Both the position numbers and the translations under genes were made by a program. From an uncultured Verrucomicrobiota bacterium (lineage in GTDB: Bacteria > Auribacterota > JABMQX01): a stretch of DNA of 64,000 nt. Below the pieces are notes generated by a model. The model had not been told where the DNA came from and did not search any database. It was given only the letters and a program-made list of their open reading frames with translations. The stretch spans positions 1 through 64,000 of the forward strand of contig CAZXGF010000005.1 in assembly GCA_964640185.1 (NCBI GenBank), given 5' to 3'. Position 1 is the first letter of the stretch, and every line of letters begins with the position of its first letter. Positions 1,095-59,696 of this stretch are shown here, in pieces.

Positions 1095-1497
1095 TGGTGG
1101 CACCCGGCTCGGCTCTCATGTCTTCAGAGGGAACCGTGTATTGGGGATGAACCTATTACGCCCTTTCAGGGCTTTTGGATTTGGTCGCCCACTATTCCCA
1201 GGGCGTTGCCCTGGGCTGCAATATTGCGCCCCTTCAGGGCTGAAGATTCGTTTCGGGTCGCCCTGTAAGGGCACACTTAACAAAGCTCAGGGCAACGCCC
1301 TGAGAAAAGGCCCCGGTTTGAGAATGACGAGCCCTGAAAGGGCGAGATAAGTCCGTCACGACTCCAAAGATTCCTCGAAGCGAGTTCGAGTAGCCCGGCG
1401 TTTTCTCCTGTTCCCAAAGGGGGCGTGGAAATGGCGTCGAGATTCCCGCACGGGCCGGGTACGAGGACAATCCCGCCACTGAAATGTAGCCGCACCC
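1095..1497 (-). mobile_element. MITE-like element, an inverted copy of the element at 22507-22927. Outer TIR CCACTGAAATGTAGCCGCACCC at 1476-1497; the opposite TIR is degenerate
   Basis: About 400 bp of co-linear similarity, in reverse complement, to 22507-22927. The shared small ORFs (PCKG.LNKAQG.ALRK) are artefacts of the repeat. The 22-nt terminal motif recurs about 10 times in the window. Confidence 0.7.
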
Positions 1498-22528: not shown

Positions 22529-22927
22529 CGGAACTGTCCTTGGACCTTGCCCGTGCCGGAATCTTGACCCCATCCCCCCACTCACCTTTACGAAAAGGAG
22601 AAAACGCCGGGCTATTCGAACTGGCCTCGAGGAATCTTTCGAGTCGTGACGCACATATCTCGCCCTTTCAGGGCTCATCATTCTTGAACGGGGGCGCTTT
22701 CTCAGGGCCTTGCCCTGAGCTTTATTAAGTCTGCCCTTACAGGGCGACCCCAAAGCAACTTCAGCCCCGAAGGGGCGCAATATTCCAGCCCAGGGCAACG
22801 CCCTGGGAAAGTCGTACGTGATGAAATACAAAAGCCCTGAAGGGGCGTGATAGGCTCATCCCCAATACACGGTTTGCTCCAGACACATGAGAGCCGACCC
22901 GCCTGCCACTGAAATGGAGCCACACCC
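22507..22927 (+). mobile_element. MITE-like element (about 420 bp) with TIRs gggtgcggctacatttgagtgg (22507-22528) and ccactgaaatggagccacaccc (22906-22927). Inverted copy of 1095-1497
   Basis: Co-linear reverse-complement similarity to 1095-1497. No transposase present. Confidence 0.7.
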
Positions 22928-23014
22928 GAGACAAAGGGAGGGCCGCAACTATCTGGCATAAAAAGAGTTGCGGCACTACTCGTTCTGCGGCAACCGCCTG
23001 CAAAATCCTGGTGA

Positions 23015-23060
23015 AACGGATTAGAAATCCGTTGCTCTATCCAACTGAGCCACGGGCGCC
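23015..23060 (-). tRNA. tRNA-Arg(TCT)-like 5' half (acceptor strand, D-arm, anticodon arm). The T-arm and 3' acceptor strand were not found, so it is likely truncated or disrupted
   Basis: On the minus strand the sequence GGCGCCCGTGGCTCAGTTGGATAGAGCAACGGATTTCTAATCCGTT closely matches E. coli argU through the anticodon arm. No GGTTCGAATCC-type T-arm or complementary 3' acceptor was seen within 150 bp. Confidence 0.45.
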
Positions 23061-24617: not shown

Positions 24618-25238
24618 TTATTCCTCTTCCTCAACAGGCACAACTTCAACTGTCGTTTGGTCCAGACGACGAACAACGCCGATTGGAGTGCCCGCCTTCA
24701 GTTCCTTTCCGTGGGCGGATCGGGCCCTGACGTAGGAAATCACACCGCTCTCCATGACCCGCACCTCTCCCACCCCATCTTCGGGGATGTCCAGATAAAC
24801 AGTTCCCGGCTTGCCAATGCACGTTCTCAGGTCACTCGTTCCCGCTTTCGTGAGCTTTCGCAGCCCCCAGAAAATCAAGGCGACACTGAACATCCCCGCG
24901 AGCCCCCAGATCACCGAATATCCAATGGCAGTGGAAGAGGGTTGGCCCCAGTTGAGATACAGAGCACCGCCCCACGTAAATAAGGTGAAAAAGCTGATTA
25001 TTGACCGTATGCTGACGAGTTTGAAGGAAGCGACTGCGTCAGCCGCATCAACCTCAGCATCGTAATCAACGTCATCAACGTCGCCGACGTCATCCACGTC
25101 TCCCCCCTCACCGCCCAACCCTATCAAAGCTGCCACCAATTGCCACAGAAAGAAGACGCTGAAAAATGCCGCGGCGCCATAGAAGGTCTGGTTGAGCGGT
25201 GTCAGACTGTTCCACCAATTGCTAAACCATTCTGGCAT
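24618..25238 (-). CDS. NfeD-like membrane protein (YqiJ-like) with a C-terminal OB-fold, partner of flotillin
   Basis: TM helices, an acidic DVDDVGDVDDVD linker and a C-terminal beta-rich domain. Immediately upstream of the flotillin gene, which is the canonical pair. Confidence 0.7.
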   Translation of the reverse strand: MPEWFSNWWNSLTPLNQTFYGAAAFFSVFFLWQLVAALIGLGGEGGDVDDVGDVDDVDYDAEVDAADAVASFKLVSIRSIISFFTLFTWGGALYLNWGQPSSTAIGYSVIWGLAGMFSVALIFWGLRKLTKAGTSDLRTCIGKPGTVYLDIPEDGVGEVRVMESGVISYVRARSAHGKELKAGTPIGVVRRLDQTTVEVVPVEEEE

Positions 25239-28630: not shown

Positions 28631-29548
28631 TCACTTGCTACCCCGACTCCGCTTCGGCTTTTGCTTTCCTTCCGGTTTTGCCTCTTCCTTCGCTTCCACT
28701 TTCGGTTCCCGCGTGGATGTCTTCTTCGTCTTCGGCTCCGCTTCCTGCTTTGGCTTTTCCTTCGCCTTTTCCTTCCGCTGCTGCTTCGCCTGAGCTTGCT
28801 GCTTTTTCAGCGCTTCCTGCTGCTCCCGGAGAGACTCGTCTATCACACCACGCCAGTGCGCTTCCAGAAGGAGGTGTCCGAGCGTCACCTCCAGTCCCGC
28901 CAGCAGGGAGGGGTCTTCTTTTACCTCAAGCTCGATCTTCTTGACGCCTACCTTCTCAGCAAGCATGTTTCTCAGCCGGTCGAGCTGCTTGTCCGTCAGC
29001 GCCTCCGCGGAACGGACCGAAACGCGCTTCTCGGACTCACCCAAAGCCTTGCGTGCGCTTTCCAAATCCTCCTTGGACGTGTCATCCAGCAGCGCCTCGA
29101 GGCGTTCCAGCGCACGGTCGGTCAGCCTAACCGATGCGTCGCTCAGCGCCGAGCCGGCAACCTGCACGATAGTGTCGCGAAGCTCATCGGTGATTTTATC
29201 AAGCAGCTCGCTGCGTTCCTGATCCATAATGCGGCGGAAACGTTCCAGCCTGTCGCGGGCCAGCTCCTCGGCCTTCTTCAGCAGCTCTTTACGTTGGGCT
29301 TCGGCCCCGTCGCGAGCTTCCTTCAAAATGGAGTCTCGCTTTTCCTCAAGCTCCTTGGCGCGCTTTTCGGCCTCGGCGCGGATGCTCTCTGCCTGCTGAA
29401 GTTTCTTCTCCGCTTCCCGTAGCTCGGCTTCCATCTCATCCTTCCGCTGCTGCATCACCCGCCGCACGGGCTTGTAGAGCAGGAAATACAGAATCACGAC
29501 GAAGACGAGAATGTTAACGATCTGTCCAATGTAAGTCCAAACGGTCAT
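28631..29548 (-). CDS. atpF: ATP synthase (N-type) b subunit with a delta(OSCP)-like C-terminal region and a Lys-rich tail (probable b-delta fusion)
   Basis: N-terminal single TM and coiled coil. Residues around 200-260 (LTDKQLDRLRNMLAEKVGVKKIELEVKEDPSLLAGLEVTLGHLLLEAHWRGVIDESL) parallel the delta C-terminus (LSDEQLAKI...[36 protein letters not shown]). No separate delta gene is present in the operon. Confidence 0.75.
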   Translation of the reverse strand: MTVWTYIGQIVNILVFVVILYFLLYKPVRRVMQQRKDEMEAELREAEKKLQQAESIRAEAEKRAKELEEKRDSILKEARDGAEAQRKELLKKAEELARDRLERFRRIMDQERSELLDKITDELRDTIVQVAGSALSDASVRLTDRALERLEALLDDTSKEDLESARKALGESEKRVSVRSAEALTDKQLDRLRNMLAEKVGVKKIELEVKEDPSLLAGLEVTLGHLLLEAHWRGVIDESLREQQEALKKQQAQAKQQRKEKAKEKPKQEAEPKTKKTSTREPKVEAKEEAKPEGKQKPKRSRGSK

Positions 29549-29611
29549 GGTGCGAGGTCTCCGCTTCCGGTTCGTGCTCTATTGTAGGGTGACGGCTGCT
29601 TAGTGCTACGA

Positions 29612-30092
29612 TTCATAAGTTCGGTGGCGTATTTGCTCAGACACGATAACAGGATGCACATGATTCTTGGAATCCCGTTTATCCTTGCGAAAGGTTCTTG
29701 GCCTTTCGGTTTACCTCAACTTCTCACGTACTGGCTTACCAGCGGCAACGAGCTTGTTAATGAGTTGTATCTCCTGAGCCGCCACAACAACCTCCTTGAC
29801 CCCGCGGCACGCGGGGCTCGACGATGACCGTATCTCCTTCGACCCCGCCATGACCGGGCAGGAAGGTCTGGAGGAACGTGGCACGGGCGTCTCGCCCGTG
29901 GAAGGTCATGGGCAGGATGCCCATGCCACGTCTTCTCCGCCAATTCATTGCGCTTGGTGATCTTTCACCCAGCACCTTCCCGGCTTGTGATTTACTGGAT
30001 GGCTCACGTCTCTGGAAGAATCCCGTGTATCCTGTTATCCCGTCAAAATAGCTCCTTTCACGGCGCCATTATACGTCACCGTATTTGCGAAT
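29612..30092. mobile_element. MITE-like element (about 480 bp) with TIRs, sitting exactly between atpE (c) and atpF (b). It contains the CATGGGCAGGATGCCCATG palindrome
   Basis: Left end ataagttcggtggcgtatttgctcagacacgataacaggatgcac. Right end gtatcctgttatcccgtc...ttatacgtcaccgtatttgcgaatcc is its inverted counterpart. A copy at 51120-51556 is about 85% identical. It ends 8 bp from the atpE stop. Confidence 0.75.
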
Positions 30093-30100
30093 CCATGTGC

Positions 30101-30346
30101 TCAGCTAAACAACGGTCCCACTTTGAAGAGGAGCAGCATCGAAACCAGCAGACAATAAATCGCCGTGGACTCAATCATCGCCAGGCTCACGAAGAGCGTG
30201 CGGGTAATTGTCCCCGCAAGGTCCGGTTGGCGAGCCATAGCCTCCAGCGCCGCGGCCGCCGTTCGCGCCTCGCCCAGAGCGGGACCAATCGAGCCAATGG
30301 CAATCGTTCCGCCCGCAACGATGACTGCCAGCATTTCCGTCGTCAT
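30101..30346 (-). CDS. atpE: ATP synthase c subunit with a complete Na+-binding signature (Q..E-S-T-x-x-Y)
   Basis: ARQPDLAG and IESTAIY match the Ilyobacter tartaricus Q32/E65/S66/T67/Y70 ligand set. 81 aa hairpin. RBS GGAGGAG. Confidence 0.9.
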   Translation of the reverse strand: MTTEMLAVIVAGGTIAIGSIGPALGEARTAAAALEAMARQPDLAGTITRTLFVSLAMIESTAIYCLLVSMLLLFKVGPLFS

Positions 30347-31065
30347 TTCGTTTTCTCCTCCGTTTCGTGTTTCTCCACAACTCTGACTGCGCCTCCAATA
30401 TAAACAGTCGCAAGAACCGCAAAGATGTATGCCTGAATCGTCCCCGTGATTAACGCCAGAAACATCAACGGCAGCGGCAGGAAGAACGGCACAAGCGACA
30501 AAAGAACGCCAAACAGAATCTCGCCGCTGAGGATATTGCCGAATAAACGCACTGCCAACGCGAGAGTCCGCGAGAGGTCGGAAATGATGTTAAACGGCAG
30601 GATGATCCAGACCGGCCGGACGTACGTTTTCAGGTAATTCAGCGTCCCGGTCATGGCGATCCCGTAGAAAGGGACCGCCAGAAAAACCACGCTCGCCAAA
30701 GCTGCCGTCGTGCTGATGTCTGCGGTGGGCGGCTTGACCACTTCGAAGAAGGACGAGATGAACGCGACAAGGTTCGACGCCAGGATGAAGATGAAAAGCG
30801 AAGCCACTAACGGAACAAAGGGCCACGGGTCCCGGCCAATGATGCCCCTGATCTCTTCGCCGAGCCAGTTCAACATCGCTTCCACCACCTGTTGTGCTCT
30901 GCCCGGGGACTTCTTTCGCAGCTTCAATCTGACGAGCGCGGCGAAAACGACCACGACCGCCATAACGCCCCACGTCACTACGATAATCTGCGTAACCGGT
31001 ACAGGGCCCACCCTGAACAGTTCCACGTTCTCAAGCGGACTTGTCATAACACCACTGTTAGCCAT
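30343..31065 (-). CDS. atpB: ATP synthase a subunit
   Basis: ALAVRLFGNILSGE with the conserved stator Arg, and 5-6 TM helices. Confidence 0.9.
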   Translation of the reverse strand: MANSGVMTSPLENVELFRVGPVPVTQIIVVTWGVMAVVVVFAALVRLKLRKKSPGRAQQVVEAMLNWLGEEIRGIIGRDPWPFVPLVASLFIFILASNLVAFISSFFEVVKPPTADISTTAALASVVFLAVPFYGIAMTGTLNYLKTYVRPVWIILPFNIISDLSRTLALAVRLFGNILSGEILFGVLLSLVPFFLPLPLMFLALITGTIQAYIFAVLATVYIGGAVRVVEKHETEEKTK

Positions 31066-31423
31066 TATGCTTTATGCCTTCCGATGGCGTGGGCGAGAAG
31101 CTTCCGGCGGCTCTCGCTCTGCCAACGGCGATGGTCCGCGCCACAATGAATCCTACCACGTATGCGACCAGGCACCAGGCGCCGAGCAGAAGCGCGCCCA
31201 GCGCTCCGCCGCCAAAAAGCACCACCCGAAGCAGGGCCAACGCCACAAATTTCATGGTCCCGTTTCTCTTTCCGCCGAGATAGGCCAGAGAGTACCGCAT
31301 GAGGGAAAAATATACCCGGCCCACCGCCAGACCCGCCAGCCCCAAACCTATGGTGATTGTTATCTGAAGCGCATCCATTTCCGATTTTCCGTAAATAGCT
31401 GTCCAGCTTTTGCCCTCTCCCAC
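31058..31423 (-). CDS. atpR: N-ATPase accessory membrane protein, AtpR-like by operon position. The start may instead be the internal ATG (MDALQIT) near 31378
   Basis: Two TM helices with Arg residues (GRVYFSLMRYS). It is the fourth gene, as expected for atpR in the N-ATPase operon order. Confidence 0.5.
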   Translation of the reverse strand: MGEGKSWTAIYGKSEMDALQITITIGLGLAGLAVGRVYFSLMRYSLAYLGGKRNGTMKFVALALLRVVLFGGGALGALLLGAWCLVAYVVGFIVARTIAVGRARAAGSFSPTPSEGIKHNG

Positions 31424-31459
31424 CGGCCGTTGACGCCGGGACGCTGAATATGCGGCCGT

Positions 31460-31759
31460 TTACTGCTCTTTCGTAATCGTTCGCCAAGCGTTGACGCAGC
31501 CGACACACAGCCCGAAAAGAAGCAGCGCGATTGTCCACCTCGAGCCCGTCCCGAACTTACGGTCAAGCCACAACCCGAGAAACACACCAAGCACCATCGG
31601 CACCACCACGCTCCAGCCGACGGCGCCAATCAAGCCGACATATCCCCAGAATGATTGCCCTTTCTCGCGGCGGCCTTTCTCGATTAGCTCCCGCTGGCGC
31701 CGAACGCGGACCTCGAACTCGTCTTCGAGTTCCTCCTTATCATCATCGTGCGCGCACAT
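31460..31759 (-). CDS. atpQ: N-ATPase accessory membrane protein, AtpQ by position (AtpZ/AtpI-like)
   Basis: SFWGYVGLIGAVGWSVVVPMVLGVFLGLWLDRKFGT resembles the AtpZ/AtpI family. It is the third gene in the operon. Confidence 0.5.
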   Translation of the reverse strand: MCAHDDDKEELEDEFEVRVRRQRELIEKGRREKGQSFWGYVGLIGAVGWSVVVPMVLGVFLGLWLDRKFGTGSRWTIALLLFGLCVGCVNAWRTITKEQ

Positions 31760-32150
31760 CTTCGTACTCCATCAACCGCCGCCACGCGGCGATTTGCATC
31801 CGGTAGAGCGAGCGCGTCGAGCGATACGAGCGCTGACTTCGGTTCTCGCGCGCTTTCCGGATTTCCTCCTGAAGCGCCGCGAGGTCGTCGCTCGCGTGCG
31901 CCTCCCGCACCGCGACCTGAACCTCCTCCGTGGTCACCCGCAACACACCGTGCCGGACCGCGATATACGCTTCGCGCTCTCCTTTTCCGCCTACGCTATA
32001 CCGATAGACCAGGATCGAGGGCACCACCGCCGTCATGTACCTCTCATGCCCAGGCAGGATCCCGAACCGCCCGCTCGGGTCCTCCGCCTGGACGTACGTC
32101 ACTTCGCGGTCCAGGACAACTCGCGTTGGAACTGTAACTCGCAGCCGCAT
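31743..32150 (-). CDS. atpC: ATP synthase epsilon subunit
   Basis: Beta-sandwich N-terminus (LRVTVPTRVVLDREVTYVQAEDPSGRFGILPGH) and about 135 aa length. Directly downstream of atpD, with the four-helix-bundle cassette in between. Confidence 0.75.
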   Translation of the reverse strand: MRLRVTVPTRVVLDREVTYVQAEDPSGRFGILPGHERYMTAVVPSILVYRYSVGGKGEREAYIAVRHGVLRVTTEEVQVAVREAHASDDLAALQEEIRKARENRSQRSYRSTRSLYRMQIAAWRRLMEYEDVRAR

Positions 32151-32154
32151 CGCG

Positions 32155-32345
32155 GTACTCCATTTCGGATTTCAGATTGCGGATTGCGGATTTCACGCTT
32201 TCAGGCTTTACCTTCTCTGCGGCAGTCCATTTCGGATTTCAGAGTTTGCACCTCTGCGGTTAAGTTCTCTGCTGCACTGCACTTTCGATTGCGGATTACG
32301 GATTTCAGGTCTCGGACCCTTGTGCTTTAGCTTCTCTGCGACACT
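32155..32345. repeat. Heptanucleotide-based repeat flank (degenerate GATTGCG / GATTTCG / GATTTCA units) 3' of the four-helix-bundle gene
   Basis: Direct repeat of 32725-32920, same orientation. It is tandem, not inverted. Confidence 0.8.
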
Positions 32346-32365
32346 CCATTTCGCATTTTTCGGCT

Positions 32366-32722
32366 CTACGCCTTTCTTTTCCTTGCGGTGTTTATGGAAG
32401 CGACGCTAATCGCCAAAAGGTCATCCGCTTCTTTCATGAGGGATTCGAGCTTTTCAGCTTTGACAATCTGCGCTTCGATCAGCAACTCCATCCAATAGAC
32501 CGACTCGTCGGCTTCCTCCTCAACTGTTCCCATTTTTGAAATGAAATCGGCGGTTGATTTCGCACGGCACGCAGCGCGATAGTTCGCTCCCACCGAGGTG
32601 CCTGAGCGAAGTAACTGGCGCCCCACCACGCCAGCAGTCTGTCCCTTTGGCAGACATTCCACCAGTTGAATAATCCGAAGTCCAAAGCCCTTTGTCCTTC
32701 CCTTCAACTCTTCCCTGTCCAC
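32366..32722 (-). CDS. Four helix bundle protein (TIGR02436 / 23S rRNA intervening-sequence protein family)
   Basis: QLLRSGTSVGANYRAACRAKSTADFISKMGTVEEEADESVYWMELL is the family signature. 118 aa. Confidence 0.85.
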   Translation of the reverse strand: MDREELKGRTKGFGLRIIQLVECLPKGQTAGVVGRQLLRSGTSVGANYRAACRAKSTADFISKMGTVEEEADESVYWMELLIEAQIVKAEKLESLMKEADDLLAISVASINTARKRKA

Positions 32723-32724
32723 GG

Positions 32725-33112
32725 CTCACTCCATTTCGGGTTCCAGATTTCAGATTGCGGATTTCGTGCTTTCAGGTTTTACCCTCTCTGTTGCGACCGA
32801 TTTCGCATTGGGGATTTCGGATTTCGGATTTCACGCTTTCAGGCTTTACCTTCTCTGCGGCAGTCCATTTCGGATTCCAGATTGCGGGCTACCGACTTGG
32901 AAATCCGCATGCCCGATTTCGCATTGCGCCGTTCTGCTTTGTTCTCCTTCTCCTCGCGTTGCTTATAGACGCGATGGCAATTGCCAAAAGCCAGTAGATT
33001 CTTCCACCTCCGAATCGCGATTGTGAATTCTCGACCTCGACCACGCAATCTGCAATCTGCAATCCGCAGTCCGCAGTCCGCAATCTGCAATCTGCAATCC
33101 GCAATCCGCAAT
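32725..33112. repeat. Second copy of the heptad flank (32725-32920), then a 3' fragment of a second four-helix-bundle gene (about 32930-33010, ...KNLLAFGNCHRVYKQREEK), then a pure (GATTGCG)n array of about 10 units (33040-33110)
   Basis: Nucleotide and peptide similarity to the intact gene's 3' end. The array reads cgcaatctgcaatctgcaatccgcagtccgcagtccgcaatc... on the plus strand. Confidence 0.75.
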
Positions 33113-33114
33113 CA

Positions 33115-34584
<1,470 letters not shown>

Positions 34585-57914: not shown

Positions 57915-58139
57915 CGCTGACTCTCCCCGGAGAACTCCGCCTCGCCGCGAACATCTCCTCCTGCTGGCAGAGCGTGCCCCGGCGTTCATGTTGAAATCTT
58001 TCAACAGTCCTGGCGCTTCTCCCTTCCCTTTATCTCGGAGGTCGCTTTTCCCCGGAGCGCCCGCTGTTCGCACCCTTCAGGCGTTTTCCCGAGGCTGTGA
58101 GCGCAGACGCTCTATCGCTTCGTGCTCCGGTTCATAAAT

Positions 58140-58750
58140 TCGGTCACGTATTTTTTTTGACGGGATAACAGGATGTGTGGGATTGCGGACTTCGGATTGC
58201 GGATTTCGGATTCCGCAATCCGCAATCTGCACTCCGCAATGGGCAGGGTGTATCTCACGAGCAACAACATCCTCCCTCAGGGAGCCTCAGCCCCACGATA
58301 ACCGTACCTGCTTCGACCCCGCCAGGGCGGGGGAGTGCGAAGTCTGCGACAACTTGTCAGCCAATTGCTTGTTCTTCCTGGTTTTTCAGAGTGCCCCACG
58401 GGCGTTCGGATTTACCGGATACCTGGGTGTGACTGTATTTGAGTGGTGGGGTTGGGATGAATCCTCTGGTCGAGAAGCCCGGCTGAAGCCGGCTCCAGAG
58501 AGGAAAAAGGCGCGCCCTGTGACCACCCGCTGAAGCGGGTGGCTAACGGGGATGCCAGCTAAAGCCTGGCAGAAATGAGGCTGTGCTGCGGTGTTGAACC
58601 CGAACCACGTGCCTGAGAAAGAACGGTGGAAAGAGGTCCCGGCTGCCACTGAAATATAGCCACACCCGGATACCTCACATTCCTCGAACGATCCGGTCTA
58701 TCCTGTTATCCTGTCGAAGGATTCCCTTCACCCCGCACTATACGTTACGG
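58140..58750. mobile_element. Composite MITE-like element (about 610 bp) with TIRs of the 29612 family. It carries a heptad-repeat palindrome (gattgcggatttcggattccgcaatccgcaatc), CTGAAGC hairpins and a ccactgaaatatagccacaccc motif (58644-58665)
   Basis: Left end ttcataaattcggtcacgtattttttttgacgggataacaggatgtg. Right end ggtctatcctgttatcctgtcgaagg...ctatacgttacggtacttgcgaacgc is its inverted counterpart. Confidence 0.65.
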
Positions 58751-59066
58751 TACTTGCGAACGCGTGTGCTTCGCCTCTTTCCGTCGCTTAAGACGGCACC
58801 CGGAAACCCCTTGCTCTCCGGCAGCGAAGGCGCCTCCGAAAAAAGAAGATGCCTCCGAAAAACGCTGTCGGGTTTCTGCGATGATTATCGAATGAGAAAT
58901 GCTAACTTGTTTCTGCGCTTTTGTTGAAAAGAAACCGCGCCTTCGAACGTGTTAGCCGTCTCTCCCAAGAGGGCAGCAAAAAACCCGCGGAGAATTCGCT
59001 TCCTAATGCTCTTGTGGATGAAGGATTGTGAGAAAAGCCGCCGTCGTACTGCCACGGCGTCTCGTG

Positions 59067-59084
59067 TTGGCACAATGGTTGCAC
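59067..59084 (+). promoter_or_regulatory. Sigma-54 -24/-12 promoter (TGGCAC-aatgg-TTGCA) with no protein-coding gene downstream
   Basis: Exact consensus spacing. Downstream about 600 nt on the plus strand has stops in all frames before running antisense into the 3' end of the CotH gene. Confidence 0.5.
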
Positions 59085-59696
59085 TATGCTGCCTCGCCTA
59101 TGTCGCCAGTGCATAACGTCGAAAAAACACACCCCCCGAACCCCCCGGCGACGTCATACCCACAAAAGGGAAGCACTGGCCGACATAGGGTGCCATTATA
59201 AATAGTGTACTGCTACTCCCATAGCTCCTCCTACGGCGAGGGCAAAGGTAGAAATCAGGAAGGCGACTTCAGCATGTGCACAACGGCGGCAACCCTGGCA
59301 CTGTGCTGAAGGAATCTGATTGGCAGGAAAGCAATAGAAAAAGGGAACGTAGGGAAACAGCCCGGGCCCTCGCCGTAGAATTTTCCCGCGACTTTCCCTC
59401 GGGCGCGTACCTTTAGAGGTAGCCTTTAGCGCCTCGAGCTGCAACCCACGTAACGCCTTCTCCTAACGGGGGCTGCGGCAACTCCTCAGTTCCGCTTATT
59501 CTGAACGTCCTTCTGTCAGCTCCAGCCGAGCCTCTTCCACGAGGAAAAGTCTCCAACGCATTCGCTGACGGACAGACGCCTTTGCGGGATTTCCTCTCGG
59601 CACGGCCTCTTTTGCCATTGCGTCCGGCAGCTACGAAGAACTGTCACGCACCAGACGCTCAAGCCGCCCGACGATGCTCCCCGCCCATTACCACCG

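Follow-up and report, generated by a model that had tools for sequence, protein, structure and literature searches.

The stretch analyzed here (the window: 64,000 nt, positions 1 to 64,000 of contig CAZXGF010000005.1 from the uncultured Verrucomicrobiota assembly GCA_964640185.1) carries a gene for a four-helix-bundle (4HB) protein of the family known from 23S rRNA intervening sequences (IVSs). This gene separates atpD from atpC in an ATP synthase operon and is enclosed by inverted arrays of a GATTGCG-type heptad. Comparison with related genomes gives good support to the view that this cassette is an old, vertically inherited, compound insertion into a formerly overlapping atpD/atpC junction of an N-type ATPase (N-ATPase) operon. 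We think it probable that the cassette is a stem-loop element of the rRNA-IVS type that is tolerated at an intercistronic junction and is not currently mobile, with an inferred mechanism. Coordinates are given on the plus strand throughout; the genes are on the minus strand, which is the sense strand.

Anatomy of the insert

The whole insert, from the atpD stop to the atpC start, spans 964 nt (32151-33114, minus strand), as delimited by comparison with empty sites in related genomes (L091, L093) and with occupied ones (L085, L086, L088, L089). It contains an intact 118-aa open reading frame (ORF) with a GTG start (32366-32722, minus strand), hereafter the 4HB gene, which matches both PF05635 (23S_rRNA_IVP; E 6e-15, 55.7 bits, cutoff 33.8) and TIGR02436 ("four helix bundle protein"; E 2e-22, 79.3 bits, cutoff 24). 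With both models above their cutoffs and atpD and atpC on the flanks, the claim of the initial annotation, which was made from the letters of the window, that an intact gene of this type lies between ATP synthase genes is confirmed. The 4HB gene is on the same strand as the atp genes and thus in the sense of the host transcript.

The heptads described around the gene in that annotation are also real. Allowing up to two mismatches, the pattern GATTGCGGATTGCG matched 26 times against an expectation of 0.76 (maximum 5 in 100 shuffles), and within the 64-kb window these matches are confined to 32168-33120 and 58181-58234. Further copies, for which a search had been suggested, were therefore found in the window for the heptads (58181-58234) and for neither the 4HB gene, which is single-copy, nor the core of the flanking 67-nt unit described below.

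The 5′ arm (33044-33121, minus strand; sense GATTGCG) has 11 heptads and was detected by Tandem Repeats Finder (TRF) with period 7 × 11.1 copies and 87% matches. In sense orientation it is composed of GATTGAT, four GATTGCG, four GATTGCA and two GACTGCG, so that what had been read as a pure array of 10 GATTGCG units consists of 11.1 copies of mixed units. The arm is a five-heptad (35-nt) block present twice (TRF, period 35 × 1.9 copies, 96%). Its first unit, GATTGAT, holds the atpD stop codon (33115-33117; …TTG GAT TGA TGATTGCGG…), and the last codon and stop of atpD (GAT TGA) are in phase with the heptads. On the plus strand the 5′ arm reads CGCAATC and the other heptads, at 32162-32930, read GATTKCG; this inversion of the large array relative to the rest had been missed. 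The inverted arms bracket the insert, with 29 nt at 33077-33105 being 90% complementary to 32162-32190.

Following the 5′ arm in the sense direction are a spacer without recognizable 4HB homology (32991-33043, minus strand), which is partly collinear with L085, and a dead 3′ stub of a second 4HB copy (32943-32990, minus strand) with 77% DNA identity to 32376-32419. The stub match is weak alone (tblastn E 0.041; hidden Markov model (HMM) positions 102-116, E 0.086; range 0.04-0.09) and is backed by a collinear counterpart in the related genome L085. The proposed 3′ fragment of a second copy is thus present, at a length of only ~44-48 nt and in the frame LLAIAIASISNARRRR rather than NLLAFGNCHRVYKQREEK.

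Between the stub and the 4HB gene lies an upstream block of 3′-arm-type heptads (32730-32930, minus strand; sense CGAAATC/CGCAATC), built of 67-nt units that start at 32730, 32797 and 32864 (TRF, period 67 × 2.0). It ends in GAAATGGAG, which provides the 4HB ribosome-binding site (GGAG, 32729-32732). A downstream block of the same type (32159-32365, minus strand) comprises units at 32159 (67 nt), 32226 (52 nt) and 32278 (67 nt) and a partial unit at 32345 that abuts the 4HB stop; it likewise ends in GAAATGGAG, here providing the atpC ribosome-binding site (GGAG, 32158-32161) ahead of the start codon (ATG, 32148-32150). In sense orientation, the 67-nt unit consists of a 30-nt non-heptad core (CTGCCGCAGAGAAGGTAAAGCCTGAAAGCGT) followed by about five CGCAATC/CGAAATC heptads and the end GAAATGGA. 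The flank of ~190 bp that had been described as degenerate heptads does contain heptads, which prove to be organized as 67-nt tandem units with 30-nt cores. A metagenome scan for the core of the 67-nt unit returned 0 matches from a collection that evidently lacks this organism's contigs, making the scan uninformative on recurrence elsewhere in the genome.

We found the arrangement in four independent JGI assemblies (3300032029, 3300031650, 3300031643 and 3300031356), and it is therefore not an assembly artifact; the contigs of these assemblies tend to break at the repeats. The best explanation for the blocks is that the 3′ arm and ribosome-binding site were amplified into 67-nt units on both sides of the gene by slippage or unequal recombination. 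Writing F for a GAnTnnG-type array and R for its complement, the order is F-F-stub-R-gene-R, as would fit a double cassette, nested or duplicated, with a decayed inner gene (F_A F_B - stub_B - R_B - 4HB_A - R_A). An alternative history is a tandem duplication of the gene with its 3′ arm followed by a deletion.

Age of the insertion and selection on the 4HB gene

Relatives were found by an AtpC search, and the encoding contigs were fetched. In all five relatives examined with AtpC 81-88% identical to that of the window, a 4HB gene lies between atpD and atpC (occupied sites L085, L086/L087, L088 and L089/L090). Three of these have a compact form, in which the arm begins in or at the atpD stop and is followed by the 4HB gene, 3-7 complementary heptads, AAATGG(A/G)G and atpC. 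The 5′ arm has exactly five heptads in L085, L086 and L089 and eight in L088. Among named relatives, a Planctomycetota metagenome-assembled genome (MAG) is closest by AtpC (78% identity). At the empty sites of L091 (Planctomycetota MAG, AtpC 78%) and L093 (AtpC 70%), atpD and atpC overlap by ATGA, and no heptad arrays were found in 5.4 kb of these two relatives; L092 has a 42-nt gap between the genes. The overlap at the empty sites indicates that the 964 nt are an insertion into a translationally coupled junction.

Ratios of nonsynonymous to synonymous divergence (dN/dS) were 0.09-0.15 for the 4HB gene, compared to 0.07-0.15 for AtpC and 0.05-0.10 for AtpD, at dS ~1 or more. As the 4HB ratio is as low as that of AtpC, the protein is functional here and is no decaying passenger.

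The stub and the surrounding spacer are collinear with L085 (…TTTTGGCAATTGCCATCGCGTC… versus …TTTTCGG--ATTGCCGTCGCTTC…), and the partial copy shared by the two therefore predates their split. The 5′ arm of the window is 36 nt longer than that of L085 at this position, and the window has since gained one five-heptad 5′-arm block as well as the 67-nt units. In L085, a 42-nt unit (3′-arm heptads plus GAAATGGAGAGTGCGCC) is repeated ~3.5 times between the 4HB gene and atpC (L085:2824-3000); this lineage amplified its 3′ arm and ribosome-binding site independently, in a manner analogous to the 67-nt units.

A second case of partial tandem duplication was seen in L044 (3001-4493), from an uncultured Deferribacteres MAG. 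There a full 4HB gene is followed by three tandem partial copies of ~204 nt each, 57-59% identical to the query and interleaved with CGAAATC-type heptads.

Inverted heptad arms around 4HB genes across bacteria

The 4HB protein has at least 7,997 relatives (7,997 of 8,000 scored candidates pass E 1e-5), the best 120 of which are 74-99% identical, and a representative library holds 10,485 4HB clusters at 50% identity. From a scan of one genome per species, we took the best 80 of 574 loci (57-73% identical) and computed flank statistics on the 77 of these with enough flank. The loci represent more than a dozen phyla, including Planctomycetota, Nitrospirota, Nitrospinota, Verrucomicrobiota, Chloroflexota, Acidobacteriota, Bacteroidota, Cyanobacteria, Desulfobacterota/"delta", Hydrogenedentota, Ignavibacteria, a Magasanikbacterium of the candidate phyla radiation and others. 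Judged by their protein-coding neighbors, none of the 80 fetched homologues is located in rRNA, and the 64-kb window yielded no rRNA. A position outside rRNA, which the initial annotation had treated as the surprise of this locus, is the rule for the family.

An F array was present within 150 nt upstream of the 4HB gene in 63/77 loci and the complementary R array within 150 nt downstream in 60/77. The canonical pair, F upstream and R downstream, occurs in 52/77 loci and the inverse in 2/77. Control windows taken within these loci had such arrays in 0.9% of cases, corresponding to an ~85-fold enrichment beside 4HB genes. Ungapped complementary flank segments scoring ≥15 were found in 63/77 loci compared to 0/77 shuffles; this scoring replaced RNAduplex flank energies, which proved too permissive (shuffled flanks reached ~-60 kcal/mol). 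We note that the 52:2 ratio shows only a fixed outside-to-inside reading, as in terminal inverted repeats (TIRs), and is silent on the gene strand. Arm polarity was rejected as proof of a strand-specific function, as an F…R palindrome reads F first on both strands.

The mode of arm length is 31-33 nt, that is, four and a half heptads with five GAnT cores, within a span from 3 to more than 15 units. The heptad varies by lineage (GATTGCG, GAATGCG, GAGTGCG, GATTTCG, GATTTTG/A, GATTTAC, GATTGAC and others); positions G1, A2 and T4 are conserved, positions 3 and 5-7 vary, and both arms of a locus share a heptad family. A basic cassette of the form upstream stop - 5 × GAnTnnG - ribosome-binding site - 4HB - 3-5 × CnnAnTC - downstream start, present as a compact version in relatives, is well supported. 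Pairs of 4HB proteins that share a heptad type are 63.8% identical compared to 59.4% for the others (permutation p < 0.0005). We dropped this covariation as evidence of specificity because the effect is small and confounded with taxonomy.

Several individual loci deserve mention. One Chloroflexota MAG (LAG bin19) has two 4HB paralogues (L026 and L063), with GATTGCG and GAATGCG heptads; differing heptads would be expected if each paralogue has its cognate repeat, although a single case is no proof. In a Sulfuricella MAG (L031, 594-4601), five gene-less F-R hairpins surround one 4HB cassette within 4 kb, an unusually dense arrangement. Runs of N begin exactly at heptad arrays beside the 4HB gene in L012 (near 2966) and L055 (near 3420). 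Masking in the genome collection thus seems to coincide with heptad repeats, and further arrays may be hidden.

Because the 5′ arm is stop-free, gene callers run 4HB ORFs on upstream through it, as in L088:2484-2942, where the product begins with LIDDFRLRIADFRLRIGDC… and is 152 aa long instead of ~120. Many library representatives align only from residue 15-50 on, probably owing to the same N-terminal extension, and database peptides of the MRIADCGLRIADCG and SAIRNPQSAIRNPQ type are likely translations of heptad arrays.

Placement between stop and start codons

Placement was measured on crude stop-to-stop ORF calls. The upstream neighbor is co-oriented with the 4HB gene in 63/78 loci, the downstream neighbor in 55/73 and both in 43/71. 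The 4HB start lies a median of 82 nt from the upstream stop, and the 5′ arm starts 0-14 nt past the upstream stop in 44/51 loci; in at least 11 of those 44, the first heptad takes its GA from the TGA stop (…TGAttgcggattgcgg…). At the other end, the last AnTC core of the 3′ arm lies a median of 10 nt from a co-oriented downstream start (≤10 nt in 27/52 loci and ≤20 nt in 39/52), and room for a separate downstream ribosome-binding site is often lacking. In the atp operon and generally, the cassette fills the stop-to-start space between genes.

These data bear on the simplest explanation, namely that the heptads are slippage products without a role and lie near the gene by accident. The variable copy number of the arms and the evident local tandem duplications are in keeping with it. 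It is contradicted by the 26 matches where 0.76 are expected and the ~85-fold enrichment beside 4HB genes, and by a polarity, preferred length and exact stop-to-start placement that hold across phyla. The enrichment and placement statistics already refute the chance reading, and we accord it a next to negligible probability.

The same host junctions recur across genera, with cassettes located before DinB-, DprA-, LpxA-, PitA- and GatB-like genes, as identified from the downstream N-terminal sequence, which points to long residence. This recurrence also bears on whether the N-ATPase of this clade has recruited the 4HB protein for an accessory or regulatory role. Such a role could explain why the gene holds its place in the operon across five lineages and is under purifying selection as strong as that on AtpC. 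However, the same family and arms occur at many unrelated junctions (DinB-, LpxA-, PitA-, GatB-like and others), and the 4HB gene is absent from more distant N-ATPase operons, rendering an operon-specific role very improbable.

Heptad arms without a 4HB gene

The second heptad locus of the window is an empty hairpin (58180-58240, no strand assigned), recognized by TRF, by its sequence and by its RNA fold, with ~4 GATTGCG-type and ~4 complementary units and no gene in the loop. The palindromic heptads that had been reported at a distant locus are therefore there. The RNA folds at -38.3 kcal/mol (z -4.5) on the plus strand, with z -6.3 on the minus strand. The hairpin sits in ~1.8 kb without a convincing ORF (57915-59696), bordered by a sigma-54 response regulator gene and a gene of 1233 aa on the opposite strand.

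We scanned viral and metagenome contigs for (GATTGCG)3 independently of the protein. Among viral contigs, 48 stretches contained 63 arrays, lying between phage structural genes, and 0/63 adjoin a 4HB gene. Among metagenome contigs there were at least 119 stretches, and of the 135 arrays listed, 5 are next to a 4HB gene, four of them in the place of its 5′ arm and one in that of its 3′ arm. Of these 135, 33 have an inverted partner within 120 nt and form empty hairpins, and 77 are solo. The idea that arrays exist only as cassette ends was dropped on these counts.

Empty hairpins lie within 20-35 nt of the stop or start of a long ORF in 31/35 cases and ~15 span a stop-to-start junction, and their polarity is F-R in 16 cases and R-F in 0. 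Solo arrays, read as GATTGCG, follow a co-oriented gene in 30/37 metagenome and 17/24 viral cases, at a median of 6-8 nt past the stop. Counts for arrays inside an ORF were left uninterpreted because stop-free arrays inflate this class under crude ORF calls. The association is thus one-way: 4HB genes are almost always located between arms, and most arms are without a 4HB gene, a relationship that recalls repetitive extragenic palindromes (REPs) and REPINs with their RAYT.

In two IMG/VR contigs (L096:1584-3160 and L119:1773-3413), GATTGCG arrays lie between genes resembling those for phage head morphogenesis and prohead protease, as named from the look of the translations. Neither contig encodes a 4HB protein. 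Phages that infect hosts with such heptads may have the same elements between their genes.

The gene-less copies raise the possibility of an active mobile element, with the heptads as TIRs, the 4HB protein as a mobility factor and the empty hairpins as non-autonomous derivatives. The atp cassette is an insertion relative to the empty sites, and its arms are inverted, with a fixed outside-to-inside polarity like that of TIRs (52 versus 2 for cassettes; F-R 16 versus R-F 0 for hairpins). Gene-less hairpins far outnumber gene-bearing cassettes, as miniature inverted-repeat transposable elements (MITEs) and REPINs outnumber their autonomous partners. A mobile origin would also be consistent with 4HB proteins that are 57-73% identical across more than a dozen phyla, with the decayed or partial copies in the window and in L044, and with strain-unique 4HB genes in Arthrospira (PMC8700078).

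Opposed to active mobility are the long occupation of the atp site over five lineages at dS ~1 or more, the conservation of several other host junctions across genera, the occurrence of the exact protein in a single known context, and the presence of one copy in 64 kb with a flank unit unique to the locus. The protein has no catalytic domain and no PADLOC or PHROGs match, and there is no transposase in or next to the cassette. A target-site duplication could not be told apart from the required TGA and ATG: the ancestral ATGA appears as TGA at the left end and ATG(A) at the right, both of which are functionally required. Taken together, we consider an active mobile element unlikely. The initial annotation had suggested that the gene is the cargo of a small mobile or duplicating cassette. 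A repeat-bounded insertion with repeat-driven duplications (67-nt and 42-nt units, doubled arm) survives from this suggestion, and current mobility is not supported, given the single copy in 64 kb, the old shared site and stub, the purifying selection and the absence of a transposase.

A Y1 transposase gene (PF01797) directly upstream of atpD in L091 (159-890) was examined as a candidate and set aside as unrelated. It has its own 13-nt repeats (CAAGCAAGGTGCC, GCACCGGTTG…) and no heptads.

A predicted stem-loop in the host transcript

For the stem-loop cassette that we favor, we propose the following mechanism. The cassette would be transcribed by read-through from the host operon, since a gap of 35-100 nt, with a 32-nt arm and a ribosome-binding site in it, is too short for a promoter as well. 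Pairing of the complementary arms in the RNA would form stems of ~30 bp and loop the cassette out. The atpD stop would thereby come to lie beside the ribosome-binding site and start of atpC, making up for the ATGA overlap that was lost, and with stop and start so close, the insertion could be tolerated at a translationally coupled junction. RNase III cuts stems of this kind in the rRNA versions of the element, and the 4HB protein is kept by selection. The repeats would also account for the local instability seen as a doubled arm, as 67-nt and 42-nt units and as partial gene copies here and in L044.

The predicted folding of the sense RNA is consistent with this proposal. The segment 32140-33130 folds at -342 kcal/mol (z -4.0), and in that fold the 11-unit arm pairs in a nested manner with the heptads before the 4HB gene, with those after it and with those just before the atpC ribosome-binding site. 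The corresponding L089 fold has a z of -3.5.

Several observations count against the proposal. In L088, long-range closure is weak (z -1.1) and the centroid structure is without the stem. Scored by ungapped complementarity, arm mismatches comprise 53 G:U and 50 A:C, showing no bias, and most of them are mixed heptad variants (A/G 62, C/T 52). With no G:U excess, the mismatches lend no support to selection for pairing in the sense RNA, and a DNA-level inverted repeat fits equally. At these loci, the looping-out, processing and binding steps are predictions from sequence. Solo arrays have no pairing partner, most heptad arrays have no 4HB gene, and looping-out does not explain the arms' own life. 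The nested-cassette history is one of at least two routes to the present order. Finally, the Coxiella 4HB protein is apparently not made, so that the role of the protein may vary by context (PMC4990558).

The 4HB protein and its possible binding sites

We modeled the 4HB protein as a monomer using AlphaFold (AF2) with 34 homologues. The model (pLDDT 95.6) has four helices (residues 3-22, 28-52, 57-83 and 89-117) arranged as an up-down four-helix bundle. The top Foldseek matches were 2RLD (BT_0352; TM 0.86) and 2GSC (Xcc0516; TM 0.79), and Avd (8UB7_E, 4DWL) aligned with TM 0.71-0.76 at 12-16% identity. By sequence, the sole relative in the PDB was 2RLD (E 3e-20). The homologue structures 2RLD, 2GSC and 4DWL have five chains each. 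By homology with Avd, the 4HB protein probably forms a nucleic-acid-binding pentameric barrel, with its own five-unit arms as a plausible target. Searches of PADLOC and PHROGs with the protein returned 0 matches, giving no support for a defense or phage role; the current NCBI family name is plain "four helix bundle protein".

On this basis, the arrays could be primarily sites for the 4HB pentamer, on RNA or DNA, with one GAnT core per protomer and arm pairing being secondary. The relationship would be that of a RAYT flanked by its own REPs or of an autoregulated regulator, and, if the target is RNA, binding would resemble that of TRAP or Avd. The modal arm of ~32 nt with five cores agrees with homologues that crystallize with five chains (2RLD, 2GSC, Avd) and with the contact of all five Avd protomers with one RNA stem-loop. 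Protein binding would also suit a GAnT core conserved against a background of lineage-dependent variation at positions 3 and 5-7, the slightly greater similarity of 4HB proteins with a shared heptad type (63.8% versus 59.4%, p < 0.0005), and the common partnerless arrays placed right after a co-oriented stop (30/37 and 17/24; median 6-8 nt). Paired sites of five heptanucleotides in Geobacter have already been read as protein-binding (PMC2700814).

Conversely, binding at these loci is hypothetical and drawn by analogy, the link between protein and heptad is confounded with taxonomy, some arrays are on viral contigs lacking a gene for a 4HB protein, and arms have anywhere from 3 to more than 15 units. 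We therefore regard a primary role as a protein platform as doubtful. Protein binding and looping-out are compatible and not exclusive.

Relation to known systems

A close parallel to the cassette is the IVS of 23S rRNA (Leptospira, Coxiella, Xanthomonas and Brucella; S23p ORF), which shares the PF05635/TIGR02436 family and the placement of the ORF, in host-sense orientation, in the loop of a long inverted-repeat stem. In the Coxiella IVS, 3-4 tandem heptamers (GACAGAT) make up the 5′ side of the stem and lie between the stem base and the S23p start in a strain-variable number, RNase III cuts at the first repeat and the ORF is decaying; the same source describes IVSs as being of unknown origin and mobility (PMC4990558). 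The window cassette differs in that its host is the atpD/atpC mRNA, not helix 25 or 45 of 23S rRNA, in that its arms abut stop and start codons, and in that its 4HB gene is under strong purifying selection, whereas the Coxiella protein is decaying and apparently not made.

Avd of diversity-generating retroelements has the same fold and Pfam family (PMC10053308). In the cryo-EM structure of the retroelement ribonucleoprotein, all five protomers of the Avd pentamer, a basic barrel, contact one RNA stem-loop, with the same residues from different protomers holding flipped-out bases (10.1101/2023.10.23.563531). Unlike Avd, the window gene has no nearby reverse transcriptase or template/variable repeats, and its neighbors are ATP synthase genes.

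REP elements, including bacterial interspersed mosaic elements (BIMEs) and REPINs with RAYT (REPtrons), are likewise short palindromes that fill intergenic junctions, also within operons, and their gene-less copies far outnumber the repeat-flanked protein gene. However, the window arms are tandem heptads and not single imperfect palindromes tagged GTAG/CGTC, and the flanked gene is PF05635 and not a Y1 (PF01797) transposase. With MITEs and TIR transposons the cassette shares terminal inverted repeats, but the 64-kb window has one 4HB gene and one further heptad locus, and no transposase lies in or next to the cassette.

In Geobacter metallireducens, eight pairs of "class 3 global regulator binding sites" have been described (Aklujkar et al. 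2009, PMC2700814). Each site consists of five tandem heptanucleotides MTYCTGA (GAMTYCT in our register) on opposite strands; the pairs lie from the 3′ end of one gene to the 5′ end of the next, as in moaA/mosC and proB/proA, and were read as possible sites for IHF/HU (PMC2700814). They are the same object as the empty hairpin at 58180-58240 with its ~4+4 units. Unlike the set described here, they were reported for one genome only and were not linked to 4HB genes, rRNA IVSs or other phyla.

Cyanobacterial 4HB loci (L064, L068-L070, L075 and L078) have GATTTTA/GATTGCA-type arms. Cyanobacterial STRR repeats are tandem heptanucleotide arrays in intergenic DNA, with consensus sequences (CCCCAGT and others) unlike the 4HB arms. 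Elhai et al. reportedly noted heptamer arrays in Nostoc in 2008, and we know of no association between STRR repeats and 4HB genes. In the literature, we found no description of heptad arms around 4HB genes outside rRNA. To our knowledge, the family-wide grammar of inverted five-heptad arms, the stop-to-start placement and the link to gene-less hairpins are new.

The IVS/S23p 4HB protein has been without a known function for ~30 years despite its large family. Its genes now have a reproducible genomic grammar, which also includes co-orientation with the host operon and purifying selection on the protein, and which joins three separate observations: rRNA IVSs, the Avd-like fold and the orphan paired heptanucleotide sites of Geobacter. 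For a protein of 118 aa, 57-73% identity across phyla suggests either very strong constraint or recent horizontal transfer. In practical terms, assemblies break at the stop-free arms, and gene callers are led by them to false N-terminal extensions. Cultivable carriers include Roseithermus sacchariphilus (CP030158.1, near 790-796 kb), Oscillatoria PCC 10802 and Anabaena CCY 0017, with Geobacter metallireducens as a carrier of empty hairpins.

We also entertain the speculative and rather unlikely hypothesis that five-unit hairpins and pentameric 4HB proteins form one pan-bacterial system. Its elements would be REP-like, residing at stop-to-start junctions and at the tips of rRNA helices, and would be read by the 4HB protein as their cognate partner, each protomer taking one GAnT heptad. 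If this were true, the protein might maintain or spread the hairpins, possibly via an RNA intermediate and with a host reverse transcriptase, as Avd does in diversity-generating retroelements, or it might govern processing and translational coupling where they occur. The IVSs of 23S rRNA in their classical form would, on this view, be the rRNA-resident minority.

Host operon and other features of the window

The host genes were assigned by HMM matches. Upstream of the 4HB gene is atpD (N-ATPase beta; 33115-34521, minus strand), and downstream is atpC (epsilon subunit; 31743-32150, minus strand). They belong to an operon at 28631-34521 (minus strand) for an N-type (alternate) F1F0 ATPase that includes AtpQ (ATPase_gene1)- and AtpR-type genes. 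The genes 3′ of atpC are ATPase_gene1 (AtpQ-type), which is above its cutoff, an AtpR (PF12966) match that is weak and below cutoff, and subunits a, c and b. The neighbors between 28.6 and 36.5 kb are thus atpF, atpE, atpB, atpR, atpQ, atpC, atpD and a DHO dehydrogenase gene, and the gene order matches the atpD-atpC-atpQ-atpR-atpB-atpE-atpF-atpA order of N-type F1F0 ATPases. The best models were TIGR03305 for beta and NF009981 for epsilon; TIGR03305 and TIGR03166 ranked within the top two matches, yet under their own strict cutoffs.

The b subunit (28631-29548) has a long C-terminal tail rich in lysine and glutamate. Elsewhere in the window, TRF detected a 9-nt tandem repeat (CATCAACGT × 6.1, 71% matches) at 25046-25100. 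The Rfam Acido-Lenti-1 small RNA motif occurs twice, at 1197-1241 (plus strand, 45.7 bits) and at 22763-22807 (minus strand, 45.3 bits), against a gathering score of 37, which hints at the phylum of the source organism, and a tRNA gene lies at 22989-23059 (minus strand).

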